Notes under the pieces: model-generated
Told to the model about the DNA's origin: nothing
Seen by the model: the letters and a program-made list of their open reading frames with translations, nothing else
Database searches by the model: none
Assembly: GCA_016282375.1 (NCBI GenBank)
Contig: JAEEKI010000023.1
Span: forward strand, 14,840-78,839
Reading direction: 5' to 3'
DNA length: 64,000 nt
Source of the DNA: Bacillales bacterium
GTDB taxonomy: Bacteria > Bacillota_I > Bacilli_A > RF39 > UBA660
Translations under genes and position numbers: made by a program
Shown: positions 545 to 64,000 of the stretch, one piece after another
Layout of the letters: each line of letters starts with the position of its first letter
How positions within the stretch are numbered: the first letter of the stretch is position 1

Positions 545-2494
545 GTGATATTTACGCATATAATTCGCTTTTTATATAAGTTATTTATCTTTGGTTTCTT
601 AAGTATTACAACTATCATCGTAGGTTTATATACCCATGCTTATTTTTCAAAACCAATTACTTTAAATTCTTCGGGAAATTATTTTTTATATGATAAGAAT
701 GATAATCTAATATATCAAGGAAGTTCGGTTAATGAATGGACAGATTTAAATAATATATCTAGTGATTTAATTAATGCAGTAATTTCTGTCGAAGATAAGA
801 ATTTCTATAAGCATCATGGTTTTGATTATTTAAGAATTACAAAAGCATTATTTAAAAATATTAAAAGTCAAAAAATACTCGAAGGAGCTAGTACTATAAG
901 CCAACAATATATTAAAAATGCTTACCTAGAATTTGATAAGACTTGGAATAGGAAGATAAAAGAAGCATTTTTAACCCTTAATCTTGAAGTACATTATTCC
1001 AAAGAAGAAATCTTAGAAGCCTATCTTAACACTATTAATTATGGTCATGGTAATTATGGTATTCAAAGTGCTTCCCATTATTATTTTAATAAAGATGCAA
1101 AAGATTTAACTATCGAAGAAGCTATTATTTTATCTGGTATTCCTAAAAATCCTAGTAATAATAATCCGGTTTCTAATTATGATAATGCCATTAAAAGAGC
1201 TAAAACTGTGGCTTTAACAATGTATAATAACAAAATAATTAATAAGGAAACTTATGATAATTTATTTCAAAATAAAATTGAAATATATGGTAAAAGAAGT
1301 GATAAAGATCTTGTTACTTTAATGTATTATCAAGATGCCGTTATTGATGAACTTAAAAGTATTCCTGGTATCACCGAAGAACAAATTAATTCTGGTAATT
1401 TAAAAGTATATACTACCCTTGATTATGAAGCCCAAAAGATAATGGAAGAAGAAATAATTAATAATATACCTAATGAAAAGTTAGAAACCTCTAGTTTAAT
1501 AATTAATCCTCATGATGGAAGTATTATGGCTCTTACAGGTGGAGTTAATTATAAAAAAAGTCAGTATAATCGAGCCCTTAATTCAAAAAGACAAGTGGGT
1601 TCCACGATGAAACCCTTTTTATATTATGCCGCTTTAAAAAATGGCATGACTTCTTCTTCAACATTTAAAAGTCAATTTACAACTTTTACTCTAGATAATG
1701 GCAAAGTTTACTCTCCGAAAAACTACGCTAATGTCTATGGAAATAAAGATATTACTATGGCGACTGCAATTGCTTATTCTGATAATATTTACGCAGTTAA
1801 AACCAATCTTTTTCTAGGAATAGATGAACTTATCAATACCGCTAAAATATGTGGTATTAAAGAAAAATTAAATGAGGTTCCTTCTTTAGCACTTGGTACA
1901 TCAGAAATTAATATAATTGATTATGCTACAGGATATACTACTTTTGCTAGTGGCGGTTATCAAAAGAAATTACATTTAGTTAGAAAGGTAGTTGATCAAG
2001 ATAAGAAAACGCTGTATGAATTTAAAGATACTAATAATCTTGTTTTAAACCCTAATTATGTCTATATATTAAATGAATTATTAACTAGTACAACAAATAG
2101 TGCATTTTTAGATTATAACATTCCTACAGCCCTTTCTGTTGCTAATAAACTATCAAATAAATACGCATTAAAAACAGGAACTACTGATACCGATTATTGG
2201 ACTGTCGGTTATAACAATAATATATTAATGATTATGTGGCTAGGTTACGATAATAATGATCCTTTAGAGGTATCTGTGGGTGGTAATGCCAAAAATATAT
2301 GGGCTAATACAGTGGAAAGAATTAGTAAATTAAATAATTATCAAGATGGTTGGTATCATACACCAAATAATGTAATAGGACTATTATTAAATGCAATTGA
2401 TGGTACACCAACAAATGATATTAAAAAAGCTAATATGTTTTATTATTTAAGAGGTAGTGAACCTTTATATGATATAAATAGTTATCAAAATTAA
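545..2494 (+). CDS. Class A penicillin-binding protein (bifunctional glycosyltransferase/transpeptidase)
   Basis: N-terminal TM helix. GT51 motif in INAVISVEDKNFYKHHGFDYLRI. Transpeptidase motifs STMKPF (SxxK), SDN and KTGT. The GTG start at 545 is uncertain. Confidence 0.8.
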   Translation: MIFTHIIRFLYKLFIFGFLSITTIIVGLYTHAYFSKPITLNSSGNYFLYDKNDNLIYQGSSVNEWTDLNNISSDLINAVISVEDKNFYKHHGFDYLRITKALFKNIKSQKILEGASTISQQYIKNAYLEFDKTWNRKIKEAFLTLNLEVHYSKEEILEAYLNTINYGHGNYGIQSASHYYFNKDAKDLTIEEAIILSGIPKNPSNNNPVSNYDNAIKRAKTVALTMYNNKIINKETYDNLFQNKIEIYGKRSDKDLVTLMYYQDAVIDELKSIPGITEEQINSGNLKVYTTLDYEAQKIMEEEIINNIPNEKLETSSLIINPHDGSIMALTGGVNYKKSQYNRALNSKRQVGSTMKPFLYYAALKNGMTSSSTFKSQFTTFTLDNGKVYSPKNYANVYGNKDITMATAIAYSDNIYAVKTNLFLGIDELINTAKICGIKEKLNEVPSLALGTSEINIIDYATGYTTFASGGYQKKLHLVRKVVDQDKKTLYEFKDTNNLVLNPNYVYILNELLTSTTNSAFLDYNIPTALSVANKLSNKYALKTGTTDTDYWTVGYNNNILMIMWLGYDNNDPLEVSVGGNAKNIWANTVERISKLNNYQDGWYHTPNNVIGLLLNAIDGTPTNDIKKANMFYYLRGSEPLYDINSYQN

Positions 2495-2516: not shown

Positions 2517-3872
2517 CTATAATGATACATTAATAATAAATGATGCTGTATTACTTAATTCTGTTGAAGAACTATTAACGTTATATCCTAATGCTTTAAG
2601 TTCAGCAATTACACCCTCTAGTTTAGATTTTACTTCATTCATTGATTTAGTAGAAGTAGGTACCGGTGTTTGAGGAACAGGTGCAGTTTGAACAGGCTCT
2701 GGCATTGGAGCTGGAGGAGTACTTTGAACTGGCATAGGTGCTGCAGCTGGGGCTGGAGCAAAATCTAAATCTTCGATTGAAGGAGCAGCAACAGGTTGAA
2801 TAGGAGTTGGAGTTGGTTGAACTGGTTGAGGAGGCACTTGAGCATATGCAGGTTGTACAGGTGCAGAAACTGGTGCTGCAGCTGGTACAGGTGTATATGT
2901 TTGTACTGGGCTTACTTGTTCTTGTACCATTTGTGGTTGAATTTCTGTTTGCATAGGTTCCTCCTTTTCTTCCTCTTTATTTTCTTCTTCTATCTTTGCA
3001 ACCGCAAATCCGTTATTATCCGCTTTAGAACTTAAATCAAATAAATTATTTTGTTGATTAAATGGGTTAACAGCTTCTGTCATCTGCATGTTTACTGCTT
3101 CTGACTCTAAATTATTAAAGAATTTATTTGTACTTCTTTCCCCTAAATTTATAGCACCTATACTATTTTGTTCTTGAACAGATGTATCAGGCAGTGGTGC
3201 ATATGTTGGAATATCAACGGCATTTTGTTTTACCTTTTCAATATCCACACCTTGATTTAAATAAACTTGACCATATTCTTTACGTAATTCTAAATCTAGT
3301 AGTCTAACGGTCATTCTTTCATCAATTATTCTTTTTAACCATCTTACTTGTGCATCATTATCTTTAACTACTAGTAATGATCTTGCATGTCTTTCTGAAA
3401 TAGAACCATCCATGACTGCATTTTGTACTTCAGGCGCAAGTGTTAACAAACGAAGTTTATTAGCTATAGAACTTTCGGATAAGCCCAACTTCATTGCTAA
3501 TTGAGCTTGTGACATGTATCCTTGATCTAATAATGCCTTATATGATTTTGCTTCTTCGATAGCGGTTAATTCTTTTCTTTGAACATTTTCGGCGATAGCT
3601 ATTTCTGCACTTTGACGATCATCAATATTAGAAATAACAGCAGGAACGGCAACAAGACCGGCCATTTTAGCTGCCCGGAATCTTCTTTCACCTGCTACAA
3701 TTTCGTATTTGTCGCCCATTCTTCTTAATACTAATGGCTGAATAATACCATGTTGTTTAATAGAGGCTGCTAGTTCGTTTAAAGAAGTATCTTCAAAAGC
3801 TAACCGTGGTTGAAACCGGTTAGGTACAATATCTTCGACAGCAACTTGTAAAACACTAGAATCGAAATTCAT
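2517..3872 (-). CDS. parB: ParB/Spo0J-family partition protein with a long Pro/Gln/Val-rich low-complexity linker and a short C-terminal helix
   Basis: N-terminal ParB/Srx box (QPRLAFEDTSLNELAASIKQHGIIQPLVLRR...EIVAGERRFRAAKMAG) and HTH (MSQAQLAMKLGLSESSIANKLRLL). Residues about 215-410 are PVQP/APV-type low complexity. Its position next to rsmG is typical for noc/spo0J. Confidence 0.75.
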   Translation of the reverse strand: MNFDSSVLQVAVEDIVPNRFQPRLAFEDTSLNELAASIKQHGIIQPLVLRRMGDKYEIVAGERRFRAAKMAGLVAVPAVISNIDDRQSAEIAIAENVQRKELTAIEEAKSYKALLDQGYMSQAQLAMKLGLSESSIANKLRLLTLAPEVQNAVMDGSISERHARSLLVVKDNDAQVRWLKRIIDERMTVRLLDLELRKEYGQVYLNQGVDIEKVKQNAVDIPTYAPLPDTSVQEQNSIGAINLGERSTNKFFNNLESEAVNMQMTEAVNPFNQQNNLFDLSSKADNNGFAVAKIEEENKEEEKEEPMQTEIQPQMVQEQVSPVQTYTPVPAAAPVSAPVQPAYAQVPPQPVQPTPTPIQPVAAPSIEDLDFAPAPAAAPMPVQSTPPAPMPEPVQTAPVPQTPVPTSTKSMNEVKSKLEGVIAELKALGYNVNSSSTELSNTASFIINVSL

Positions 3873-4039: not shown

Positions 4040-5194
4040 TTAACTCCATGATATACAAAATGAACTATCATCTGAATTAACGACACATCCAACACTATCC
4101 GATGTATCAAAACATTGTAAGTCACCACCATCAAATACTCCACAACTTATTGTACCAACGCGACAATTAGCATAACTAAGATATGAGCTACAATCATTAT
4201 CAATGTCAATTTCGATTCCTTCATCAACAAAGACTTGGTATATGGCTTGTTTTGCACTTTCTTGTTGGACACTTGTAAAATTACTATTTGGTGTATGACC
4301 AGATAACCCATATTGAGTATATGGTTGACTTAAACATACTTCATGGTCATCACCATCATTTAAACATACATAATACTTACTATCATCTTGACCGATATAT
4401 ACTGCATGATTGGTTGCTTCACCACTATTTTGTAATGTTCCTCCATGATTAGGGTATGTATATATTGGCTCATAACTTCCTGTATTACTATTATATGTTG
4501 TTGATAAAGCATACCAATATTGAGTTGGTCCTGATGAAGATGCAGATGCTGTTCCCGCTACGCAAGAAACATTTACTACTTTAAATCTACCTTCATATGT
4601 TTTATCGGATAATGCACTTTGATCTGCATTTACATTATAAAACTTACTTGTGAGTGTCCATACGGCCGTACTTGTTGTTGAACCTGTTCCATCTATTTGC
4701 GCTCCACTTACGACTGATGCGACATAATTGGTATATGAAAGTGTTGATAAATCGGTTTCACTTTTTATATTATTGGTTCCTTCACTGACGTGGGCATTAT
4801 TGGCTAGTGTTCCTTGGATCGTAAATTCATTTGAGGATACGCCACTTGTATGAGTAGTATATTTATCACTACTTGTCCATTCATACACAATATCATATGT
4901 ACATACCATACTATAATCGGTATTGGTAGTGAAGTTTACCGTTAATGTTGTGTTATTCTCGGCGGCTATATTACCTTGTTTAGCTTGAACCATGTTACTT
5001 GCTGTTACATTAAGTAACATTTCTCCACCTAAGGTATCAAACACCATGTTATTTCGTTCTGTGACTGTATTGGCATTAGCTACATTTGTTATATTCATAT
5101 TACCTGTTGAAAAATATGCATATGTTGCAAAGGTTATAATCGTTAATAGCATTACGATTGCTATACTCATTAAAATAATATTATTCTTTTTCAT
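4040..5194 (-). CDS. Secreted Cys-rich protein, paralog P1 of a three-member family. Its signal peptide has a TasA/camelysin-like (SipW-cognate-like) GxTYAYF motif
   Basis: MKKNNIILMSIAIVMLLTIITFATYAYFSTGN..., with a C-terminal Cys-rich tail. It is homologous over its whole length to the ORFs at 61038 and 63502. An ATG at 5194 with RBS TAGGAGT is preferred over the upstream GTG at 5227. Confidence 0.75.
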   Translation of the reverse strand: MKKNNIILMSIAIVMLLTIITFATYAYFSTGNMNITNVANANTVTERNNMVFDTLGGEMLLNVTASNMVQAKQGNIAAENNTTLTVNFTTNTDYSMVCTYDIVYEWTSSDKYTTHTSGVSSNEFTIQGTLANNAHVSEGTNNIKSETDLSTLSYTNYVASVVSGAQIDGTGSTTSTAVWTLTSKFYNVNADQSALSDKTYEGRFKVVNVSCVAGTASASSSGPTQYWYALSTTYNSNTGSYEPIYTYPNHGGTLQNSGEATNHAVYIGQDDSKYYVCLNDGDDHEVCLSQPYTQYGLSGHTPNSNFTSVQQESAKQAIYQVFVDEGIEIDIDNDCSSYLSYANCRVGTISCGVFDGGDLQCFDTSDSVGCVVNSDDSSFCISWS

Positions 5195-5226
5195 ATGAAC
5201 TCCTATCTTATAAATAAAGAATATCA

Positions 5227-5258
5227 CAGATTAAAAGAATAGTCACTATTGACTATTC
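5227..5258 (-). terminator. Putative terminator overlapping the rsmG stop codon
   Basis: Stem gaatagtca/tgactattc (9 bp, loop 4), followed on the minus strand by TTTT. Confidence 0.35.
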
Positions 5259-5956
5259 CATTTCTTGCTTCTCTTTAATATTTGATTATATTCATATAAT
5301 TTATTACTATCTTTTTTTTCAATAACTAAAAGATTTCTTTCATCATTAGTAATTGGCAGATTAAAGCTTATTATTTGATACTTATTAATATTTAAATCAT
5401 TTAAATGATTATCAAGAATCCTTTTTTCATTAATAATACTACCTTTCATTAAGACTACTTGACCCTCTTTTTTTATAAAAGGTAATGATAAAGAAATAAT
5501 AATATCAATGAATGCTACCGCTCTTGAAACACATAAATCAAATTTATCCTGATTATTTTTAGCATAATTTTCAGCGCGATCATTAATAATAGTTACATCT
5601 TGTAAACTTAACTTATTTGTAATAATCTCTAAAAACTTAGTTTTTTTATTATTAGAATCTAGTAATGTTAGTTTAAGATGTGGATAAAATATTTTAATAA
5701 CGATTCCAGGAAAACCTGCACCGGTACCAATATCTATCATATTATTAACCTTTGATAAATCAACTGCCTTACATAAAGTAAGTGAATCATAAAAGTGTTT
5801 TAGATAAACATCTTCTTTTTTAATAATAGAGGTTAAATTAGTATGACTATTATACTCAATTAGTTCGTTATAATAGATTTCTAATTGTTTTAACTCATCT
5901 TCACTAATATAAATACCTAATTTTTTTACTTCTTCAATAAAATCATTTATTTGCAT
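5246..5956 (-). CDS. rsmG: 16S rRNA (guanine527-N7)-methyltransferase RsmG (GidB)
   Basis: SAM-binding motif IDIGTGAGFPGIV. Conserved position downstream of mnmG. Confidence 0.9.
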   Translation of the reverse strand: MQINDFIEEVKKLGIYISEDELKQLEIYYNELIEYNSHTNLTSIIKKEDVYLKHFYDSLTLCKAVDLSKVNNMIDIGTGAGFPGIVIKIFYPHLKLTLLDSNNKKTKFLEIITNKLSLQDVTIINDRAENYAKNNQDKFDLCVSRAVAFIDIIISLSLPFIKKEGQVVLMKGSIINEKRILDNHLNDLNINKYQIISFNLPITNDERNLLVIEKKDSNKLYEYNQILKRSKKWNSQ

Positions 5957-7838
5957 CTTTACTATATTCCCTTTTCATATAAACCAATAATAAACTAATA
6001 TCAACTGGATTTACGCCACTTATTCGACTAGCTTGAGCAATGGTTTTAGGCCGAACTAAAGCTAGTTTTTGTCGTGCTTCACTAGCAATATTTTTTATTT
6101 TACTATAATCAATATCATCTGGTATTTGCTTTTCTTCTAGTTTATCTAGTTTTTCTTTTTCTTGGTATTCCTTATTAATATAACCTTCATATTTATACTC
6201 TATTTCAACTTGTTCACATTCTTCGTGAGTATAATCACTTAAATCAAGATATCTTTTTATAATATCCATGGTTATTTCTGGTCTTTTTAAAAGTGTTAAA
6301 TAATTAAAATTACCAGATGGAATACTAATATTTCGTTCTTTAAAGTCTTTTTTTACTTCATCAGTAATAACTAGTTTATTATTATTTAATAATTCTTTTA
6401 AAGTTTTTATTTTAGCCATTTTATTGGTAAATCTTTGATATTTATCTTCGCTAACAGCCCCAATATCATAGGCTTTTTTAGTAAGTCTTATATCAGCATT
6501 ATCATGTCTTAATAATAAACGAAATTCGGCTCTAGAGGTAAGCATCCGATATGGATCAGTAATACCCTTAGTAACTAAATCATCAATTAATACACCAATA
6601 TAAGCTTCATGTCTTTTTAAAATAAATTCTTCTTTATTGTCTATTTTTAATGAAGCATTAATACCAGCGATTAATCCTTGACCAGCTGCCTCTTCATAAC
6701 CAGAGGTACCATTTATTTGACCAGCTGTATATAAATTCTTAATAATCTTAGTTTCCAATGAAGGACTAATTTGCATTGGATCAATAGCATCATATTCAAT
6801 AGCATAAGCATATTTTGAAATAACAGCATTTTCTAAGCCTTTTAAACTATGGACCATTTTTTCTTGAACATCTCTTGGCATAGATGTTGAAAAACCTTGT
6901 AAGTACCATTCATCATAATAGATACTTTCTGGTTCTAAGAAAAGTTGATGACGCTCTTTATCAGCAAAACGCACAATTTTATCTTCGATTGAGGGACAAT
7001 ATCTTGGACCTACTCCGGTAGCATATCCACCATACATGGCACTCTTTTTCAAATTATCTCGAATAATTTGATGAGTATTCTCATTTGTATAAACTAAGTA
7101 GCATTTTTGTTGTCTATTTAAATCATATTGTGGTTCAACATCAAATGAAAAGGTCCAATAAACATCATCACCAGTCTCTGGTTTTAGAATATCAAAATTA
7201 ATGGAATCAGCTTTAATCCTCTGAGGGGTACCAGTTTTTAAACGTTTAATATTAAAACCTAACTTATGAAGATTTGTTGATAATTCGTTACTTCTTTTTT
7301 CACCGTGAGGACCTCCGGGGGTATTCTCACTTCCTATTAAAATATTGGCATTAAGGTAAGTACCTGTTGTTAAAATTACGCTTGTTCCTTCGATTTTTTC
7401 ACCATTATTTAATACTACCCCCGTAACGGTATTATTATCAACAATTAAGTTTTCAACCATACCCTCTTTTATTTCTAAATTGGGTGTTTCATCTAAATAT
7501 TTGCGCATTACTTTTGGATAAACTCTTTTATCTGCTTGCGCTCTTAAAGCTCTTACGGCTGGACCTTTAGAATTATTTAACATCTTGATTTGAAAGTGGG
7601 AATAATCCGCTACTTTACCCATCAAACCACCTAGGGCATCTATTTCACGAACAATAATACCTTTGGCACTACCACCAATCGACGGATTACATGGCATATC
7701 AGCAAGATTATCAATATTAGCCGTTACTAGTAGGGTCTTTTTACCCATGAAAGCTGCGATATGAGCTGCTTCACAACCAGCATGTCCTGCTCCAACAACT
7801 ATAACATCATACATAATATCCCCTACTTTCCCACACAA
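5943..7838 (-). CDS. mnmG: tRNA uridine 5-carboxymethylaminomethyl modification enzyme MnmG (GidA)
   Basis: FAD-binding N-terminus YDVIVVGAGHAGCEAA. 631 aa. Conserved synteny. Confidence 0.95.
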   Translation of the reverse strand: MCGKVGDIMYDVIVVGAGHAGCEAAHIAAFMGKKTLLVTANIDNLADMPCNPSIGGSAKGIIVREIDALGGLMGKVADYSHFQIKMLNNSKGPAVRALRAQADKRVYPKVMRKYLDETPNLEIKEGMVENLIVDNNTVTGVVLNNGEKIEGTSVILTTGTYLNANILIGSENTPGGPHGEKRSNELSTNLHKLGFNIKRLKTGTPQRIKADSINFDILKPETGDDVYWTFSFDVEPQYDLNRQQKCYLVYTNENTHQIIRDNLKKSAMYGGYATGVGPRYCPSIEDKIVRFADKERHQLFLEPESIYYDEWYLQGFSTSMPRDVQEKMVHSLKGLENAVISKYAYAIEYDAIDPMQISPSLETKIIKNLYTAGQINGTSGYEEAAGQGLIAGINASLKIDNKEEFILKRHEAYIGVLIDDLVTKGITDPYRMLTSRAEFRLLLRHDNADIRLTKKAYDIGAVSEDKYQRFTNKMAKIKTLKELLNNNKLVITDEVKKDFKERNISIPSGNFNYLTLLKRPEITMDIIKRYLDLSDYTHEECEQVEIEYKYEGYINKEYQEKEKLDKLEEKQIPDDIDYSKIKNIASEARQKLALVRPKTIAQASRISGVNPVDISLLLVYMKREYSKDANK

Positions 7839-9163
7839 AAATCCCTAAATAAGCGATCAATAAGAGCATCTTCATAAGTATCACCAATTATTTCGCCTAA
7901 TAGATCATAACAAGTCTTTAAATCGCTTTCAATTAAGTCTATTGGTATACCACTATCTAATGATTCTTTAGCCTTTTTCATAGCATCATTTGCCCTATTT
8001 ACCAAGCTTATTTGTCGAGCATTAGATAAATATGTTAAGTCTTTATTTATTTCATTAATATTAAACATCTCGATTAATGTATCTTTTAAGGAATCAAGTC
8101 CATTAACACTCTTTGTATTTCCATATATAACATTATCATCAGATATATTAATAACAATCTTTTCATCGTTCTTATTAACAAAAATGACATGTTTTTTGTC
8201 CTTAATAACATTTAATAACTTTTTATCATCTTCATCTAGTGGTCTACTACCATCTAAAACTAGTAATACTAAATCGGCATCATTAAGGGCCTGATTACTC
8301 TTTTCAACGCCTATTTTTTCTACGACATCGGTTGTTTCATGAATACCTGCTGTATCAATTAATTTAACTTCGATACCATCTAAACTAATTATTCCTTCGA
8401 CTAAATCACGTGTTGTACCGGCTATATCAGTAACAATAGCCTTTTCTTCATCTAATAAATGATTTAAGATACTACTTTTACCTACGTTTGGTTTGCCTAT
8501 AATAGCAACATTTATTCCATCAGATACTATTTTACCGTATGAAGCACCTTTAACTAATTGATCTAACTTTTGACTAATTACGACTAACTTTTCATTAAGT
8601 AAATTTTCGGTTATAACTAAATTATCTGTATATTCAGGATAATCAATATTTACCTCAATATTAGCCATTAAAGATATAATATCTTCTCTAATATCATTTA
8701 TTATTTTTGTTAGATTACCACCTATTTGATTTAATGATAACTTTCTTTTTGATTCTGTTTTAGCATTGATTAGTTCATTAACGGCTTCTGATTCTAAAAG
8801 ATTAATTCTACCATTTAAGAATGCTCTTTTAGTAAATTCGCCAGGCTCAGCAAGACGACATCCTTTAGTTAATAATACTTCTAATATCTTATTCGTAGTC
8901 GTATATCCACCATGACAATTTATTTCTACTACATCCTCTTTGGTATAGGTCTTAGGTGCACGCATTACCATAACTAGTACTTCATCAATTATTTCATTAT
9001 CTAAAGTAATATGACCATATTTAATAATATGAGATTCCCCTTTTTTTATAGGATTTGAAAAAATACTATTGGTTATTTCAATAGCTTTATCTCCACTTAA
9101 ACGGATAATGGAAATTGCGCCAACCCCTAAGGATGTTGCAATTGCACATATTGTATCATCCAT
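7823..9163 (-). CDS. mnmE: tRNA modification GTPase MnmE (TrmE)
   Basis: G-domain GKPNVGKSSILN, DTAGI, NKND. C-terminal CVGK motif. Confidence 0.95.
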   Translation of the reverse strand: MDDTICAIATSLGVGAISIIRLSGDKAIEITNSIFSNPIKKGESHIIKYGHITLDNEIIDEVLVMVMRAPKTYTKEDVVEINCHGGYTTTNKILEVLLTKGCRLAEPGEFTKRAFLNGRINLLESEAVNELINAKTESKRKLSLNQIGGNLTKIINDIREDIISLMANIEVNIDYPEYTDNLVITENLLNEKLVVISQKLDQLVKGASYGKIVSDGINVAIIGKPNVGKSSILNHLLDEEKAIVTDIAGTTRDLVEGIISLDGIEVKLIDTAGIHETTDVVEKIGVEKSNQALNDADLVLLVLDGSRPLDEDDKKLLNVIKDKKHVIFVNKNDEKIVINISDDNVIYGNTKSVNGLDSLKDTLIEMFNINEINKDLTYLSNARQISLVNRANDAMKKAKESLDSGIPIDLIESDLKTCYDLLGEIIGDTYEDALIDRLFRDFCVGK

Positions 9164-9222
9164 AATATCACTTCGCTCTCGCGTATTATAGCACGAATTT
9201 AAATAAAAATAAAAGAGTATCT

Positions 9223-9840
9223 CTACTCTTTTACCTCGATATAACTAATTACGATATGCCTATTTGGCTCTTCACCTTCACTAACTGTCGAAATATTCTT
9301 ATATTTAGTTAACACATTGTGAACAATTCTTCTTTCGTAAGCATTCATATTTTCCATATGAACAGCTACTTTAGTCTTAAGAACATCACGAGCAATGTTT
9401 TTAGCTAGTCTTTCTAATCTAGCAACTTTTTTATCTTTATAATCTTCGACATCTAGGGAAATGGCAAAAAATATACCTGTTTCTACAAGAACTTTTTGTT
9501 TAACTAGATTTTCTAAAGCTTTTAAAGTATTACCATTATGACCAATTAAAATATTGTTATTATTTGAATACATCTTTAAAACAGTACGATCATCATGATT
9601 TCTTAATTCAAAAGATACTTCTAAACCTAATTTTTCAATAATCTCTTTTAAGAATTCTTTAATTAAGTTATAAACATCTTCTTTTTTATAAACTATAACT
9701 TCAGTAGTTTCACCCTTAAACAAACCCTTTTTAACTTCTCCTGCACGGTAAATGATATCATTTTTATCCAAATTATTGTCTTCACAAATTTGGTTTAATG
9801 TTTCTTCGAAATCTTTACCAGACTTAGTTATTTTTTCCAT
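9223..9840 (-). CDS. jag: Jag/KhpB RNA-binding protein (KH and R3H domains)
   Basis: 205 aa. R3H-like C-terminus (ERRIVHNVL). Conserved yidC-jag pairing. Confidence 0.85.
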   Translation of the reverse strand: MEKITKSGKDFEETLNQICEDNNLDKNDIIYRAGEVKKGLFKGETTEVIVYKKEDVYNLIKEFLKEIIEKLGLEVSFELRNHDDRTVLKMYSNNNNILIGHNGNTLKALENLVKQKVLVETGIFFAISLDVEDYKDKKVARLERLAKNIARDVLKTKVAVHMENMNAYERRIVHNVLTKYKNISTVSEGEEPNRHIVISYIEVKE

Positions 9841-10885
9841 ACTTCATACCTTCCTTTATTTTTAATTTACTATTTATATCTTTCTTCTCCCGTCTGTCAT
9901 AATGACTTTCTTCTTTCTTTTTATCGATTAAATTCATAACAAACGTTTGAATAACTATAAATGCATATGTAACAATCCAGTATAAAGCAATGGCTGTTGG
10001 TAAACTAAATGATGCAAATGTAATAAATACGGTCATAACAATCAACATCGTTTTCATTTGACTTTGTCCTTCAGCATTTGGCATTTGATTCTTAGACATT
10101 GAATACTTAAATGAAAAATATGTTGTTAAACTAATTAATACTACTAGAATAATAAATGAATATTGATGATTAGCAATACCTACACTTGGTGTTGTTCCCA
10201 AATTCCAACCAAATATCTTTCCTTCATATATAGCCGGTATTTTATAAATTGCTTGTAAGAAAGCAAAGAATAAAGGTAATTGAATTAAAGCAAGTACACA
10301 ACTTAATACAGGATTTATCTTATATTTTCGATAAACTGCCATGGTTTCTTGCGTTTTCATCATCATTGATTCTTGATCAGTACGTCCTGCATACTTCTTT
10401 TCAATCTTTTGTAATTCAGGAGTTGCTTTTTGAATTCCCTTACTTTGTCTTTGGGTCTTAATATTAAATGGTAAGATAATAATTCTGATTAATAACCCTA
10501 TTACAATTAAAGATAAACCTAAGTAAGCATTTTTAAGACCCCATGACTTAAATACATAACCTAATTTAAGAATAATATAAGCAAGAGGTTTAACAAATAA
10601 GAATTGCCATACACTTCTTGTTTTATTAGATGTTATCTTAAATTTATTACATTCTGGTAACTTAGATAACTTAGGTGACATTTGATCTTCATATTTTTCA
10701 TATAACTTATATATATCTGTATCTTTAGATGGCTTACAGAAGATACTCTTTTGAAGATTTTGACCTGTTGTTTCATTAATAACAATCTTACCTGCATCAT
10801 CCTTAATATAATTATTAGCTCCACATCCTGTTGTTAATAATATAACTGATAGTAGAATAATACTCATTATTTTTTTATTTTTCAT
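9824..10885 (-). CDS. yidC: Membrane protein insertase YidC/SpoIIIJ family (lipoprotein)
   Basis: Lipobox LLTTGC. Multiple TM helices. Basic C-terminal tail. Located downstream of rnpA. Confidence 0.85.
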   Translation of the reverse strand: MKNKKIMSIILLSVILLTTGCGANNYIKDDAGKIVINETTGQNLQKSIFCKPSKDTDIYKLYEKYEDQMSPKLSKLPECNKFKITSNKTRSVWQFLFVKPLAYIILKLGYVFKSWGLKNAYLGLSLIVIGLLIRIIILPFNIKTQRQSKGIQKATPELQKIEKKYAGRTDQESMMMKTQETMAVYRKYKINPVLSCVLALIQLPLFFAFLQAIYKIPAIYEGKIFGWNLGTTPSVGIANHQYSFIILVVLISLTTYFSFKYSMSKNQMPNAEGQSQMKTMLIVMTVFITFASFSLPTAIALYWIVTYAFIVIQTFVMNLIDKKKEESHYDRREKKDINSKLKIKEGMKYGKNN

Positions 10886-11207
10886 TTAAATCTCCTATTA
10901 ATGTTTTAAGACTTAATGATTTATCATTATAACTAGCCGTTAAACACGTTTTCTTAATTATTATAATATACTTTCGATTATTTTTAAATAGCAACTTATT
11001 TTCGTCAATAAGAGCTTTTGTTTGCCTTTTCAATCTGTTTCTTATAACTGCATTACCACATTTTTTTTGCGTAGTAACTCCAAAAAGTTTATTATTAGAA
11101 TCTATATCAACATAAAAAATTGTAAAAAATTGATTACTTGCTTTTTTACCATTATTAATTATGTAATTAAAATCATTACTAGATTTAATAATTTCCCTTT
11201 TTTTCAT
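10875..11207 (-). CDS. rnpA: RNase P protein component
   Basis: 110-aa basic protein downstream of rpmH. Typical rpmH-rnpA-yidC order. Confidence 0.9.
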   Translation of the reverse strand: MKKREIIKSSNDFNYIINNGKKASNQFFTIFYVDIDSNNKLFGVTTQKKCGNAVIRNRLKRQTKALIDENKLLFKNNRKYIIIIKKTCLTASYNDKSLSLKTLIGDLNEK

Positions 11208-11227
11208 AAACTATCCCAAATTGAAAA

Positions 11228-11247
11228 AAAACCACGATGATGTGGTT
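11228..11247 (-). terminator. Attenuator/terminator hairpin between rpmH and rnpA
   Basis: Stem aaaccac/gtggttt with a 6-nt loop, followed on the minus strand by a T-run. Confidence 0.4.
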
Positions 11248-11369
11248 TATTTTGATAAAACTTTTCTTCCTTTTCTACGACGTGAAGATAAAACTTTTCC
11301 ACCTTTTCTTGAAAAAAAGCCATGAGTTTTCTTCATTTTTCTTTTATTAGGTTGATATGTTCTTTTCAT
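11247..11369 (-). CDS. rpmH: 50S ribosomal protein L34
   Basis: Manual reverse translation gives [40 protein letters not shown]. It is not in the ORF track because it is short. Confidence 0.9.
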
Positions 11370-11467
11370 ATAATATTTCTCCTTTTTAGCGTTCTTATTA
11401 TAATATTTTAATTAACACTATGTCAAGAATAAATATTTACTTTTATATATAATAATGAAAGAAAAAT

Positions 11468-11626
11468 TTATCAACATAAAAATTATCAACAAAATCAACA
11501 ACATTAAAAAATAGGGAATGTTAATAAAATAAAATTATCAACAAATGAATTTTGTTGAAAGTGTTGATATGTTATGTTATCATACTAAACAAAAGGATAA
11601 AATGGTGTTGATAATATTGTTGATAA
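11468..11626. promoter_or_regulatory. oriC upstream DnaA-box cluster (at least 6 TTATCAACA-type boxes) plus AT-rich region
   Basis: TTATCAACA at 11469, 11484 and 11535. Reverse-complement TGTTGATA(A/T) at 11562, 11606 and 11618. Located between rpmH and dnaA. Confidence 0.7.
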
Positions 11627-11710
11627 CTATTTAAGATACACATTTTTCTTTATCTTTAAATCAAAATAAGATACAATGAAATTGTTAATAATTATGAGTG
11701 GGGTAAGGGT

Positions 11711-13066
11711 ATGAATGAAAATGAAATATTCAAAAACTTTTTAGAGTATATTCAACCAAAAGTTAATTTGAATTCTTTTAATTTATGGTTTGCATCTTTA
11801 GAACCTTTATCTTTTGATGGAGAGATATTAAATATCAAAGTACCAACATTAACTCATAAAAAAATACTTACTGATACATATAAAGATGTTGTAGATGAAG
11901 CGTTTTATGCAACTTTAAATAAAAAGATTCAAGTACAATATTATACTAATGATGAAATAGAAGCTGAAAAAGAGAAGAATAGTACAGTAATTGATGTTAG
12001 TCAATATCTAGAAGATGATTGGGAAAGTAATTTAAATCCTAATTTTACTTTTGATACCTTTGTAGTAGGGGATTCTAATAAATTTGCTGTTATGAATGCT
12101 CACATAGTTGCCGAAAATCCTGGTGTTGAGATTAATCCTTTCTTCTTATATGGAAAAAGTGGAATAGGTAAGACACACTTAATGCAAGCTATTGGTAACT
12201 ATATAATGGCTAATTCTAAAAAGAAAGTTCTTTATGTATCAAGTGAAGAATTTAGAGATGATTACACGGGTATTGCTAGTGTTAGTAAAGGTATAGATAC
12301 CATGAATTATGCCACTAGTTTTAAAAGAAAATACCAAAATGTTGATGTATTAATAATTGATGATATCCAATTTCTAGTAGATGCCGTTAAATCTCAACAA
12401 GAATTCTTCCATATATTTACGAATCTATATAATGCTAATAAACAAATTATCATCAGTAGCGATAAACCACCAGAAGAGTTAAAAAAATTTGAAGATCGTC
12501 TTCGTAGTCGATTTATGATGGGCTTATCGGTTGATATTCAACCACCAGATTTTGATCTAAAATGTAAGATAATTAAAAAGAAGATAGAAAATACAACTTT
12601 AAAAGGTAAATTAGACCATGAAATAATCGAATATATAGCTAATTCATGTAAGAATGATATTCGCCAAATCGAAGGGACTATCAAAAGATTAATGGCCTAT
12701 ACAGCGATGATGGGACCTACCAAAATTGATTTGAATTTTACAATGGAAGCACTCAATGATTACTTAAAAGTTAATATTTATGCAGAAAACTCTATTAGTA
12801 AAATTCAAAATATCGTTGCTGATTATTTCAATATATCAGTAAGTGATTTAAAAAGTAAAAAGAAAACTGCTAATATTGCAAAACCAAGACATATAGCTAT
12901 GTATCTATGTCGAGTTGATACAGAAGAAGGTTTAGCAAGAATTGGCTTAGAATTTGGAGGGAGGGATCATTCCACAGTATCTTCAGCACTGGATAAAATT
13001 ACTAGCGAATTAAAAACCGATAGTAAATTAAACATGATAATAAAGGATATTGAAAGTAAGTTATAA
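11711..13066 (+). CDS. dnaA: Chromosomal replication initiator DnaA
   Basis: AAA+ Walker A GKSGIGKTHLMQAIGN, IDDIQFL, and a C-terminal DNA-binding domain. Confidence 0.97.
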   Translation: MNENEIFKNFLEYIQPKVNLNSFNLWFASLEPLSFDGEILNIKVPTLTHKKILTDTYKDVVDEAFYATLNKKIQVQYYTNDEIEAEKEKNSTVIDVSQYLEDDWESNLNPNFTFDTFVVGDSNKFAVMNAHIVAENPGVEINPFFLYGKSGIGKTHLMQAIGNYIMANSKKKVLYVSSEEFRDDYTGIASVSKGIDTMNYATSFKRKYQNVDVLIIDDIQFLVDAVKSQQEFFHIFTNLYNANKQIIISSDKPPEELKKFEDRLRSRFMMGLSVDIQPPDFDLKCKIIKKKIENTTLKGKLDHEIIEYIANSCKNDIRQIEGTIKRLMAYTAMMGPTKIDLNFTMEALNDYLKVNIYAENSISKIQNIVADYFNISVSDLKSKKKTANIAKPRHIAMYLCRVDTEEGLARIGLEFGGRDHSTVSSALDKITSELKTDSKLNMIIKDIESKL

Positions 13067-60983: not shown

Positions 60984-61012
60984 TTGCGTGAAAATATTGC
61001 CTTTGCTATAAT
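60984..61012 (+). promoter_or_regulatory. Near-consensus sigma-A promoter TTGCGT-17-TATAAT for paralog P2
   Basis: ttgcgt (60984-60989), a 17-nt spacer, then tataat (61007-61012). RBS ataggagtgg. ATG at 61038. Confidence 0.55.
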
Positions 61013-61037
61013 GAACCTATAAGATAGGAGTGGCTAT

Positions 61038-62183
61038 ATGAAAAAGAATAATATTGTATTAATAGTTATCGCCATCGTTACATTACTAACATTTATTATC
61101 GGAGCAACGTATGCATATTTTGCTACAGGCAATTTAAATATTACAAATGCTGCTAATATTAATACGGTAACAGAACGAAACAACATGGTCTTTGATACTA
61201 TAGGTGGTGGAATGATTCTAAATATAACGGCAGCCAATATGGCTGAGAGTCTAAGTGGAAATGTAGCGGCGGAGAATAATACGACCCTAACCGTTAATTT
61301 TACAGCTAACACAAGTTATAGTATGGTATGTACATATGATATTGTGTATGAATGGACTTCAAGTGACAAATATACAGCTCATACAAGTGGAGTATCATCA
61401 AATGAATTTACGATTCAAGGAACACTAGCAAGTAATGTGCATGTTAGTGAAGGGACAAATAGTATTAAAACTGAGAAGGATTTATCAACTTTATCATATA
61501 CAAACTATAGTGCCATCGTCGTAAGTGGAGCGCAAATAGACGGAACTGGAAATACAATGAGTACGGCCGTATGGACCTTATCAAGTAAGTTTTATAATGT
61601 AAGCCAAGATCAAAGTGCTTTATCAGGCAAAACATATAGTGGTAGATTTAAAGTAGCTAATGTCTCATGTACAGCAGGAACTGTAACAGTACCTGGCCCA
61701 ACAAGTTATTGGTTTCCAACAACAACATCAACATTGAATAGTAGCACTAATCAATATGAACCAACTTATACACATCCCGCAACAGGAGGGCCAGTGCAAT
61801 CAAGCGGAAGCGCAACAAATCATAATGTATATATAGGACAAGATAGTAGTAAGTATTATGCATGTGCTATAATTCAAGGCCATGAAATATGTTTAAGCCA
61901 ACCATATACACAATATGGACTTGAAGGACACACAAGAGGACATTTTACGGACGCACAACAAGTAAGCGCGAGGCAAGCTATCTACCAAGTATTTATTGAT
62001 GCTGGAATAACAGTTGATATCAATAATGATTGCTACGCTGGTCCCACTAGCACTGCCTGCTGTGTGGGCTACCTCTACTGTGAAGCGAACATCTTCGGCT
62101 TTGTCGATTGTATATATGACGATAACAACGAGAGCGAGTCCTGTGGAGTTGACCGACTTGGCCATGCCTATTGTTATTTGTAG
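61038..62183 (+). CDS. Secreted Cys-rich protein, paralog P2 (same family as 4040..5194), with a GC-anomalous 3' end
   Basis: MKKNNIVLIVIAIVTLLTFIIGATYAYFATGN... signal peptide. Homologous to P1 and P3 over its whole length. The final roughly 50 codons are Cys-rich and about 55% GC. Confidence 0.75.
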   Translation: MKKNNIVLIVIAIVTLLTFIIGATYAYFATGNLNITNAANINTVTERNNMVFDTIGGGMILNITAANMAESLSGNVAAENNTTLTVNFTANTSYSMVCTYDIVYEWTSSDKYTAHTSGVSSNEFTIQGTLASNVHVSEGTNSIKTEKDLSTLSYTNYSAIVVSGAQIDGTGNTMSTAVWTLSSKFYNVSQDQSALSGKTYSGRFKVANVSCTAGTVTVPGPTSYWFPTTTSTLNSSTNQYEPTYTHPATGGPVQSSGSATNHNVYIGQDSSKYYACAIIQGHEICLSQPYTQYGLEGHTRGHFTDAQQVSARQAIYQVFIDAGITVDINNDCYAGPTSTACCVGYLYCEANIFGFVDCIYDDNNESESCGVDRLGHAYCYL

Positions 62184-62310
62184 GATTAGTTGTCCTCTGC
62201 GGGAGTGCTCGAATATCTTAATATCTTGAAACTAATTTTGCCGACAGGCAAAATTTAAGGCCAATGGGTGCACAAGCGTGAGTGTAGGCACACGAAAAAT
62301 TATCAAAATA

Positions 62311-62353
62311 ATGTAAAAAAAATAGTATAATTCTTAGAACTATACTATTTTTT
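62311..62353. terminator. Bidirectional terminator between P2 and ispG
   Basis: Stem atagtata/tatactat flanked by an A8 run and a T7 run. Confidence 0.45.
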
Positions 62354-63417
62354 TATCATTTCATTTATGATTTTTTTTAATTCAGGTATTATATCTTCTT
62401 GTTTTCCTTTTTTGATAATTTCTCCTTTTTTAAAGATAACTGCTTCGTTTATACCTCCGGCTATACCAATATCGGCTTCCTTGGCTTCTCCAGGACCATT
62501 AACTGCACATCCCATGACAGCAACAGTAATATCATTATTTATAGTTTGTAAAAAGGATTCAATTTCTTTAGCAATTGGTAATAAATTATTCTTGTTCTAC
62601 CACAGGTTGGACATGATATTAATTTGGGTCCAGGGAATAGATTACAATCTTTTAATATTTCTTTAGCTACAAGGATTTCTTCTTTGGGATTATCTGATAA
62701 TGAAACACGAATTGTATTACCAATGCCTTTTTTAAGAAGAATGCCAAGACCAATACTAGATTTAATAGTACCACTAAATTTAGTACCTGATTCTGTTATC
62801 CCAATATGAAGAGGATATGTAAATACTTTAGATGCCTGTTCATAGGCTTTTATACATAAATCCAAGTCTGTGGCTTTAAGAGATAGGCATATATCATAAA
62901 AACCATATTTTTCTAATATGGCAACATTTCTTTTTGCACTTTCAATCATTCCTTTAACAGTAACTTTATTATTAGCTAATAAATTTTTTTCTAAAGAACC
63001 TCCATTAATACCAATTCTAATAGGAATATGTTGTTTCTTACAAGCATCAACTACCTTTTTAATATTTTCTTCAGAACCAATATTACCAGGATTAATTCTA
63101 ATTTTATCAACACCACTTTTAATGGCTTCAAGAGCTATTTTATAATCAAAATGAATATCGGCTACGATAGGAATATGAATTTGTTTTTTAATATCTTTGA
63201 TGGCTTTGGCATCTTCGAGATCTAAACATGCTACTCTAATTATTTCACAGCCAACATTTTCTAATTCTAAGATTTGTTTAACAGTGGCATTAACATCCTT
63301 GGTTTTAGTATTAGTCATTGATTGAATTACGACTTTGTTATTTCCTCCAATTTCGATATTTCCAACTTTAATTGCTTTTGTTTGTGTTCTTTTATACATA
63401 TGATACAATCCTTTCAT
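62345..63417 (-). pseudogene. ispG: 4-hydroxy-3-methylbut-2-enyl diphosphate synthase IspG (GcpE), interrupted by a single-nucleotide frameshift near 62575. It is either a pseudogene or a sequencing error
   Basis: The 292-aa ORF 62539..63417 ends ...SCPTCGRTRIIYYQLLKKLNPFYKL*. The +1 frame at 62345..62575 encodes the expected C-terminus IAKEIESFLQTINNDITVAVMGCAVNGPGEAKEADIGIAGG..., including the 4Fe-4S Cys. Confidence 0.6.
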
Positions 63418-63501
63418 TATTCATCATACGCTATATAAGATATCATTGTAAATATTCTATGGTTAGTTTATAATTAACTTATAAATAGATAGTAGGAGTC
63501 A

Positions 63502-64000
63502 TATGAAAAAGAATAATGCTGTTTTAATAACAATTATTATAGTAATATTATTAGCCTTAGTAATAGGGGCAACGTATGCATATTTTGCTACAGGTAATTT
63601 AAATATAACGAATGTAGCCAATGTAAATACGGTAACAGAACGAAACAACATGGTATTTGATACTCTAGGTGGCGGGATGAGTCTTAATATTACGGCAGCG
63701 AATATGTCCGAGAGTCTAAGTGGTAATTTAGCCGCGGAGAATAATACAACATTAACGGTTAATTTTACTGCCAACACCAGTTATAGTATGGTCTGTACAT
63801 ATGATATTGTCTATGAATGGACATCCTCAGATAAATATACAGCTCATACAAGTGGAGTATCGTCAAATGAATTTACTATTCAAGGAACACTTGCAAATAA
63901 TGCTCATGTAAGTGAAGGAACCAATAATATAAGTAGTGAAACAGACCTATCAACATTAACATATACAAATTACAGTGCAACGGTGGTAAGTGGAGCCCAA
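63502..64000 (+). CDS. Secreted protein paralog P3 (N-terminal 166 aa; continues beyond the window)
   Basis: MKKNNAVLITIIIVILLALVIGATYAYFATGNLNITNVANVNTVTERNNMVFDT... is about 85% nucleotide-identical to P2 over the first 500 nt. RBS gtaggagt. Confidence 0.75.

Follow-up and report, generated by a model that had tools for sequence, protein, structure and literature searches.

Putative surface proteins of an uncultured rumen Bacilli lineage as probable targets of a chromosomal diversity-generating retroelement

The C-type lectin fold has been described as systematic among the variable regions (VRs) of diversity-generating retroelements (DGRs) annotated to date (PMC8144416), and Legionella LdtA and Treponema TvpA are surface-located DGR variable proteins with this fold. 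Regarding the cassettes themselves, an architecture that associates a MutS-like gene (MSL) with the accessory gene avd is already known (PMC5758913). A system of particular relevance here is that of the Type V pilus tip adhesins of Bacteroides, surface proteins whose C-terminal head is diversified by a gut DGR that is cellular and not phage-borne, and whose N-terminal module is common to many non-variable paralogues across the genome (bioRxiv 10.1101/2024.11.15.621889). From the perspective of protein export, the relevant comparison is with TasA, CalY, and TapA, the substrates of the signal peptidase SipW (TIGR04088, PF12389).

Here, we analyzed a 64-kb stretch of DNA (the window) in which an earlier note had reported a lineage-specific, three-member family of secreted Cys-rich proteins of which two copies flank ispG. 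The three ORFs, P1, P2, and P3 (table 1), are indeed paralogues located at the places reported, save that P3 starts at 63503 and not at 63502, and their N-terminal identity of about 80% was confirmed by ungapped amino acid comparisons of P2 with P1 (80.6% over the first 216 residues), of P2 with P3 (87.3% over 166 residues), and of P1 with P3 (81.3%). All three harbor the KK-hydrophobic-(G/F)ATYAYF(A/S)TGN motif and are preceded by the same TAGGAGT ribosome-binding site, as had been described. Three members is nonetheless an undercount, as a fourth copy (P0049) lies on the same 79.7-kb contig, and lineage-specificity does not extend to the N-terminal domain (NTD), which on its own belongs to a far larger family (426 clusters at 50% identity, E<=0.001). 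Likewise, the P2 promoter that had been called near-consensus has a perfect −10 with a TGn extension but a −35 that agrees at only three of six positions, which is why a consensus scan did not list it. The family had not been recognized in the earlier note, and P1, P2, and P3 in fact fall below the threshold of every Pfam and NCBIfam family; scans against both collections returned no family for P1–P3, for 73 full-length relatives or for 67 NTD-only relatives, and a PDB profile search gave nothing relevant. Overall, the view of P1–P3 as predicted exported or surface-located proteins that fit no described family is supported. In the neighborhoods of L002, L003, L010, L109, and L110, the genes of the family lie dispersed between housekeeping genes and share no conserved partner.

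Table 1. Coordinates of the features of the P1–P3 family (positions in the window, except for the last row)
Feature	Position	Strand	Description
P1	4040..5194	−	384 aa; paralogue between rsmG and a noc/parB-like gene
P1 tail	4040..4204	−	fossil variable region; ends CISWS*
P2 promoter-like site	60984..61012	+	read from sequence; 17-nt spacer between −35 and −10
P2 −35	60984–60989	+	TTGCGT
P2 −10, TGn-extended	61004–61012	+	TGCTATAAT
P2 ribosome-binding site	61025..61031	+	TAGGAGT
P2	61038..62183	+	381 aa; signal peptide, N-terminal beta-sandwich domain (NTD), C-terminal domain (CTD), Cys-rich variable-region-type tail
P2 signal peptide or anchor	61038..61121	+	residues 1–28, ending GATYAYF
P2 NTD beta-sandwich	61182..61676	+	residues 49–213; two invariant Cys, C98 and C211
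P2 CTD core	61677..62027	+	residues 214–330; YIGQD..KYY.C..CLSQPYTQYGL motif, long helix
P2 variable-region-type tail	62028..62183	+	residues 331–381 and stop TAG; Cys-stapled beta-meander
Back-up in-frame stop TAG	62187..62189	+	two codons past the first stop; likewise in the TR/VR pairs of relatives
GC-rich segment	62190..62211	+	TTGTCCTCTGCGGGAGTGCTCG; 22-mer at the position of the relatives' IMH
Conserved post-VR element	62215..62254	+	ATCTTAATATCTTGAAACTAATTTTGCC; 28-nt element with hairpin
Hairpin	62236–62253	+	TTTTGCC-GACA-GGCAAAA; computed fold
ispG	62345..63417	−	between P2 and P3; a 1-nt deletion near 62585 breaks the gene into two ORFs (292 aa and 56 aa)
P3	63503..64000 (window end)	+	first 166 aa; full length 385 aa (P0039)
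S26-type fragment	L003 20406–20588		SM.PT type; not adjacent to a family gene

The C-termini of these proteins are Cys-rich, as had been noted, with seven Cys in the last 51 aa of P2 and six in the last 54 aa of P1. What had been missed is that, judging from sequence comparison, this tail is a DGR variable region, because the differences between a template repeat (TR) and the tail fall at TR adenines and because the same TR is found together with different tails. Two sister species carry the P2 orthologue just after rplQ, and behind it come a MutS-like gene, the TR, Avd, and a reverse transcriptase (RT). At locus L009, the order is rplQ, the P2 orthologue P0023, a MutS_I-like ORF of 127/134 aa, the TR, bAvd, and RVT_1, and both there and in L105–L108 the target, the MutS_I-like ORF, the TR, bAvd, and the RT all lie on one strand. 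This succession of MSL, avd, TR, and RT in L009 and L105–L108 resembles DGR cassette architecture D (Wu et al. 2018, PMC5758913), from which it departs in that the MutS_I match is sub-threshold (17.3 vs 20.6 bits) and in that the cassette is absent from the window. The TR of a sister species matches the Cys-rich tail, and in L009 all 26 of the 26 mismatches between TR and VR are found at TR adenines, as are 27 of 27 in L106, 25 of 26 in L107, and 21 of 23 in L108. These last three loci, which come from three samples, have the same RT and the same TR together with three different VRs, and the stop codon of the TR itself is mutated in them. Elsewhere in the sample of L009, a different scaffold (L010) carries a second paralogue, which represents a further, remote VR of the L009 TR, with an identical hairpin and an identical IMH (start site of mutagenic homing). 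The variable region comprises 48 codons, 15 of which are AAY codons set between invariant Cys, Gly, and Val, so that about 4e17 tails are possible. Family-wide, entropy amounts to 3.24 bits in tail columns where the TR has Asn, 1.92 bits in the other tail columns, and 0.95 bits in the NTD. The divergence of the tails between copies would be explained by their nature as DGR variable regions.

On this basis, we consider it very probable that P1–P3 form a family of exported surface proteins, in an uncultured rumen Bacilli lineage, that are targets of a chromosomal DGR. Mutagenic homing is established DGR biology, from which the mechanism outlined here is taken, and its outcome is what is observed in the sister genomes. 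The SipW-type signal peptide would lead to the export of the protein, P1–P3 included, and the conserved N-terminal beta-sandwich would act as a stalk or assembly module, common to many adhesin-like proteins, whereas the last ~48 codons of the C-terminal head would make up the VR, in the form of a Cys-stapled beta-meander. The cassette located beside the P2 orthologue (MutS-like gene, TR, Avd, and RT) would copy the TR with adenine-specific errors and the mutated copy would be written into the VR, homing being steered by the GC-rich IMH and the downstream hairpin, while A-free codons would hold Cys, Gly, and Val fixed as the AAY codons vary. The Cys of the tail may form disulfides and the head may bind a ligand. 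The guess of "variable surface material" made in the earlier note was, in this respect, right in spirit.

Within the window, P2 keeps every mark of a DGR target. Its tail is homologous to the proven variable regions of L009, L010, and L106–L108 and differs from the gene body in composition (GC3 of 0.55 vs 0.21; A fraction of 0.21 vs 0.38), and downstream of it are found 3' target-recognition elements, namely, the double stop, the GC-rich 22-mer, and the 28-nt element with its hairpin, the last of which is common to all proven VRs. The 28-nt element, of which the window holds one copy when none is expected by chance, follows every VR-type tail examined and is absent behind TRs. The homology between P2 and L009 stops at ~62301, where the L009 cassette starts, and the 64-kb window has no TR, Avd, or RT. 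By blastn, the tails of P1 and P2 and the L009 TR have no second copy in the window, and none of the best 120 RT homologues lies on the window's contig. A 17-mer of the GC-rich segment of P2 is found elsewhere only in L079, the sole related locus among the 94 of a metagenome contig scan, and a TR sharing this 17-mer was found neither in the metagenome collection nor in IMG/VR. The P2 tail is 100% identical in L079, a second assembly, though the N-terminal part differs, and therefore no diversification of P2 itself is seen. VR/TR pairs with adenine-confined differences are found in orthologues and paralogues and not with the window copy; similarly, strain-to-strain differences of the VR under the same TR are seen in sister species and not for P2 or P1. 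Because the cassette is absent from the window while P2 keeps the marks of a target, two readings are left for P2, namely, a remote target served by a DGR that lies elsewhere in the genome, or a VR that was recently orphaned and is now frozen. Scans of IMG/VR for the post-VR element and for the IMH-like segment of P2 gave zero matches, which argues against a phage origin.

The other two copies have different tails. In P1, an old copy, the tail has taken on the AT-rich usage of the genome: its GC3 is 0.11, the 6-Cys scaffold is kept, the double stop, the GC-rich segment, and the conserved element with its hairpin are all missing, and the same tail occurs identically in three distinct proteins (P0027, P0030, and P0031). 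The tail of P3, which lies beyond the window, has lost several Cys and is degenerate at the protein level. As had been reported, P2 and P3 form direct repeats on either side of ispG (82% identity over 300 nt ungapped, 83% over 498 nt, longest exact run of 29 nt). The excision of ispG by recombination between them, which had been put forward in the earlier note, is possible in principle, since paralogues do recombine, but ispG is already frameshifted, in L079 as well.

A Cys-rich, variable tail could also be the active peptide of a polymorphic toxin or bacteriocin-like effector, which the NTD and CTD would serve to deliver, and a homologue with a PT-HINT domain after the CTD does exist (P0071). 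However, P0071 is the sole PT-HINT case, neither HINT nor toxin domains occur in the window proteins, and no immunity-like gene is found downstream of them. This reading is highly improbable, and we rejected it on the grounds that a pre-toxin HINT is missing from the window proteins and that the variation of the tail is templated by the TR.

With regard to export, the resemblance to SipW-cognate signal peptides that had been pointed out stands in so far as the P2 signal peptide aligns in register with that of TasA (GGTWA↓AF), which places the predicted cleavage between A26 and Y27; mature TasA in PDB 8AUR begins at A28. TIGR04088 is on the other hand sub-threshold on P3 (13.0 bits for a cut-off of 19), P1 and P2 being unlisted, and scores 16.6–19.0 bits on wider family members. 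When compared with a TasA family profile of 47 sequences by hhalign, the signal peptide alone was aligned, in register (65% probability, E 6e-5), and the comparison with TasA alone aligned nothing beyond it. The family is like TasA, CalY, and TapA in the length and motif of the signal peptide (GATYAYF vs GGTWAAF), but its mature domain is unrelated to theirs: the suggestion of a TasA/camelysin (PF12389) domain failed, with no match in sequence or predicted fold to the TasA jelly-roll and a PF12389 hit in 1 of the 67 NTD-only relatives, at E 0.019. Nor was sipW found in the neighborhood, a search for the S26 motif across the window plus 162 kb of related loci having yielded one S26-type fragment only, which is not beside a family gene. 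The NTD module is also found alone or fused to LRR, Big_2/MucBP, DUF6273-like, or PT-HINT domains. Type IV pilins were considered and rejected, as MKKNNIVLIV... has no G/FTLIE-type site of the class III signal peptides (Gly at −1, Glu at +5) and as the helix modeled by AF2 stops at residue 31 and gives way to a disordered linker, as opposed to a long alpha-1 packed on the globular domain.

These observations bear on two other readings of P1–P3. If they were TasA/camelysin-type subunits, cleaved by SipW, donating an N-terminal strand, and building matrix fibres, their tails would diverge by ordinary drift or selection. The register of the signal peptide, the TIGR04088 scores of relatives, which reach the cut-off of 19.0 bits, and the operons of 3–7 NTD-only paralogues in L005 and L111 are consistent with such subunits, as are residues 31–48, past the predicted cleavage, which are conserved yet of low confidence in AF2, as a donor strand would be; we nevertheless regard this reading as unlikely. 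P1–P3 may alternatively be type II membrane-anchored receptors, with a 23-residue hydrophobic segment left uncleaved and the NTD as a stalk that would lift the variable head clear of the wall. The segment concerned, IVLIVIAIVTLLTFIIGATYAYF, is strongly conserved and membrane-spanning in length, AF2 models residues 3–31 as a single helix, and no dedicated peptidase was found in the window and the 162 kb of related loci, but the register agrees with the cleavage site of TasA. Conservation of the motif is moreover also characteristic of the SipW-cognate class, which counts against an anchor, and we regard this reading as rather unlikely.

Returning to the exported DGR targets that we favor, the head itself is of interest. 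The AF2 model of the CTD alone has a pLDDT of 94.1 and a pTM of 0.88, no Pfam family matches this domain, and comparisons of sequence and predicted fold gave no C-type lectin fold for the VR domain. We tentatively propose, as a possibility, that the DGR of this lineage diversifies a non-C-type-lectin head (a helix and a beta-meander, with six A-free Cys codons stapling hairpins that bear 15 randomizable Asn codons) carried by a SipW-type exported module that may polymerize. In comparison with the Type V pilus tips of Bacteroides, the family is hosted by a Gram-positive bacterium, its module is not a Type V pilin, its signal is of SipW type and not a lipobox, and its VR domain has no C-type lectin similarity; its assembly into a fibre is putative.

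If true, such a non-lectin head would represent a novel structural way of accommodating massive templated variation and, on a SipW-type module, a Gram-positive counterpart of the DGR-diversified pilus tips. A confidently modeled, Cys-stapled, non-lectin scaffold with room for about 1e17 variants would widen the known rules for hypervariable binding sites and could serve as a compact base for engineered DGR evolution. In this lineage, the 28-nt post-VR element would offer a simple annotation marker of active, remote, and fossil DGR targets. Finally, a role would be given to an unannotated family of ~130 rumen proteins, which would thereby be tied to the larger, likewise unannotated NTD family whose 426 clusters include, among others, LRR, MucBP, and Big_2 adhesins.

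The divergent, Cys-rich C-terminus (last ~50 aa, hereafter the tail) of the probably exported protein family to which the window genes P1, P2 and P3 belong is the variable region (VR) of a diversity-generating retroelement (DGR). In such systems, a reverse transcriptase (RT), together with the accessory protein Avd, copies the RNA of a template repeat (TR) into cDNA that carries errors at adenines; guided by the IMH, a GC-rich site at the VR 3' end, and by a downstream hairpin, this cDNA homes to the VR. Our assignment follows from adenine-specific differences between TR and VR, from multiple VRs sharing one TR, and from the entropy of the Asn columns. On a 116.7-kb ENA scaffold from a sister species (L009), the P2 orthologue P0023 lies directly after rplQ, as P2 does, and is followed by a MutS_I-like ORF of 127/134 aa, a TR, bAvd and an RVT_1 reverse transcriptase. 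This TR is a 189-nt repeat of P0023's own 3' end, from which it differs at 26 positions, 26/26 of them at TR adenines; its translation reads CGANDNNANCNVGDFNCEVNNNGYVNCNDNSENVNCEVDSSGHANCED, with adenine-free Cys, Gly and Val codons and 15 AAY codons, so that ~15^15 = ~4e17 tails can be computed. The same sample also contains, on a different scaffold, a paralogue (L010) whose tail is another VR of this TR and whose GC-rich IMH and downstream hairpin are identical. In a second species sampled by three metagenomes (L106-L108; RT 71% identical), one identical TR accompanies three different VRs, with 27/27, 25/26 and 21/23 mismatches at TR adenines; the TR stop TAA is itself mutagenised in these VRs, to GGA or TTA, and where it is lost translation continues for three further codons and ends at a back-up TAG(TAG). 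Across 73 family members, column entropy reaches 3.24 bits at tail positions that are Asn in the TR, vs 1.92 in the rest of the tail and 0.95 in the N-terminal beta-sandwich domain (NTD). Templated, adenine-specific rewriting of the tail is therefore what the sister genomes show, with several dispersed DGR targets in each genome; an earlier note had rightly suspected a variable surface protein but overlooked the DGR. The ORF between VR and TR in L009 and L105-L108 scores 17.3 bits for MutS domain I (threshold 20.6), consistent with the MSL accessory class described by Wu et al. 2018; cassettes that combine MSL and Avd are already known (PMC5758913). P0315, one of the RT homologues, carries a MutS_I fusion.

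The three window ORFs are present as that note described, with a common N-terminus MKKNN-hydrophobic-(G/F)ATYAYF(A/S)TGN, a common TAGGAGT ribosome-binding site and 6-7 Cys within the last ~50 aa; the N-terminal identity it put at ~80% is 80.6% for P2/P1 (ungapped, first 216 aa) and 87.3% for P2/P3 (ungapped, 166 aa). P2 and P3 do flank ispG as direct repeats (83% identical in nt, with exact runs of at most 29 nt), and Pfam and NCBIfam scans matched zero families. The near-consensus promoter proposed for P2 has a perfect TGn-extended -10 but a weak -35, and the family is not three-member, since the 79.7-kb contig encodes P0001 (P2), P0027 (P1), P0039 (P3) and a fourth copy, P0049. The host is a Firmicute of ~30% GC and the window is its origin region, with dnaA, gyrBA, spoVG, yabP/Q and the ribosomal protein operon; the cumulative GC skew minimum at ~10-12 kb (window ~10000-11700) and the flanking gene strands (rnpA, yidC, jag and mnmE on -, dnaA and dnaN on +) place the replication origin inside the window.

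Coordinates of family genes and associated features in the window and in related loci
Locus	Feature	Position	Strand	Remarks
Window	Noc/ParB-like protein	2517-3872	-	TIGR04285 250 bits, cut-off 315 not reached; C-terminal extension ~250 aa, Pro/Gln/Ala/Val-rich
Window	P1	4040-5194	-	ORF
Window	P2	61038-62183	+	ORF
Window	GC-rich 22-mer	62190-62211		3' of P2
Window	28-nt element	62215-62242		3' of P2; hairpin TTTTGCC-GACA-GGCAAAA
Window	ispG, split	62345-63417	-	ORFs 292 aa + 56 aa, break near 62585
Window	P3	63503->64000	+	ORF, runs past window end
L001	Family copies	179-577, 2809-3387		VR-type tail before rpsB-tsf, another copy after
L005	NTD-only array	8672-12087		3 paralogues, 205-230 aa, downstream of RNase J
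L009	ORF between VR and TR	11298-11681		
L079	Family copies	67-1044, 1270-2415		Second paralogue directly upstream of P2 orthologue
L111	NTD-only array	4316-10766		7 paralogues, 205-230 aa, downstream of RNase J

P2 retains every mark of a DGR target, its cis elements being conserved: GC3 rises from 0.21 in the gene body to 0.55 in the tail and the A fraction drops from 0.38 to 0.21, a second TAG stands two codons after the first, and both the GC-rich segment and the hairpin element follow. The latter occurs once in the window (0 expected by chance) and, in the related loci examined, comes after every VR-type tail and never after TRs. No TR, Avd or RT lies within the 64-kb window, where homology with L009 spans P2 and ends at ~62301, the start of the L009 cassette, in place of which ispG (-) and then P3 are found. 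Scans of the metagenome collection and IMG/VR yielded no cognate TR, and the top 120 RT homologues include none on the window's 79.7-kb contig. A second assembly, L079, is 100% identical to window 61600-62700, P2 tail included, vs only 63-77% over 61100-61500 (the 5' half of P2, 61100-61600, aligning to L079 1330-1830), and the N-terminus of P0002 is that of another paralogue, P0054. These alignments indicate that paralogues have recently recombined or undergone gene conversion; given the upstream divergence and the identical tail, the NTD was swapped and the VR left unmoved. We read P2 as a remote or recently orphaned DGR target, at which present-day DGR activity is conceivable, if rather doubtful.

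The P1 tail has genome-typical codons (GC3 0.11), carries neither the GC-rich segment nor the 28-nt element, and is identical across three distinct proteins; judged by its sequence, it is a fossil VR, and its ending CISWS* (window 4040-4057) fits an old TAA->TGG read-through event. The P3 tail, known solely as protein P0039, has lost several Cys, and our reading is that P1 and P3 are decayed copies. The break in the intervening ispG resembles a 1-nt deletion (GRT-RIIYYQ... is read where GRTRINLLPIAKEIE... is expected), and since the same frameshift recurs at 100% identity in L079, an independent metagenome contig, ispG may be a pseudogene in this organism.

A search across 5.8 billion proteins retrieved 130 relatives of the window proteins, 0/130 with a functional name (the few named ones are all 'hypothetical protein'); sources, where named, are 'Bacilli bacterium' MAGs, and the loci in the genome collection belong to rumen MAGs. 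With full-length P2 as query, exhaustive HMMER searching of cluster representatives yielded 426 clusters at E<=0.001; of the matches listed at the top, most span the NTD. The proteins are modular: the NTD (N-terminal ~215 aa) also stands alone in proteins of ~210-230 aa or is fused to BspA-type LRR, Big_2/MucBP, DUF6273-like or PT-HINT domains, and the C-terminal domain (CTD, ~165 aa) may also follow other domains. Each array of 3-7 NTD-only paralogues (L005, L111) follows a gene for a 362-373-aa protein that is N-terminally similar and bears a CarboxypepD_reg-like domain; the arrangement looks like an operon for a multi-subunit surface structure, with no signal peptidase adjacent. Copy number and position of family genes differ among genomes. 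On a 2397-bp ENA contig, P0071 carries PT-HINT (87 bits) after the CTD and ends ...VHNVC, possibly a polymorphic-toxin derivative broken off by the contig end.

The TasA/camelysin likeness noted earlier holds for the signal peptide, in register, and not for the mature protein. TIGR04088 (cut-off 19) gives 13 bits on P3 and 16.6-19.0 on wider NTD family members, and hhalign of the NTD family reaches 14.6% probability against TasA alone and 64.9% against a 47-sequence TasA profile, aligning GATFAYF to GGTWAAF and nothing past the signal peptide. Membership of the TasA family was rejected, the alignment being confined to that segment. The export signal of the family is probably TasA-like, with a cleavage predicted for P2 at A26|Y27 from the mature start of TasA at A28 (PDB 8AUR); sipW, which the earlier note suggested looking for, was found near no family gene at any locus examined. 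The NTD may polymerise through donor-strand exchange, or it may be a stalk on an uncleaved anchor.

AF2 models the full-length protein (pLDDT 84.5) as a helix (3-31), low-confidence residues 31-48 and a sandwich of long strands, and the CTD alone (pLDDT 94.1, pTM 0.88) as small strands and a long helix (92-108), with the VR on a five-strand meander; Foldseek returned zero PDB matches at E<=0.001. According to PMC8144416, annotated DGR VRs are systematically C-Lec, and a Bacteroides DGR study (bioRxiv 10.1101/2024.11.15.621889) reports likewise, whereas the predicted model and the negative search make the VR of this family unusual and apparently non-lectin. The tail Cys would form disulfides, and in the rumen the head would bind variable ligands at the cell surface, candidates being other microbes, phage, and plant or host glycans. 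The finding chiefly offers an apparently non-lectin VR scaffold and a role for an unannotated family.
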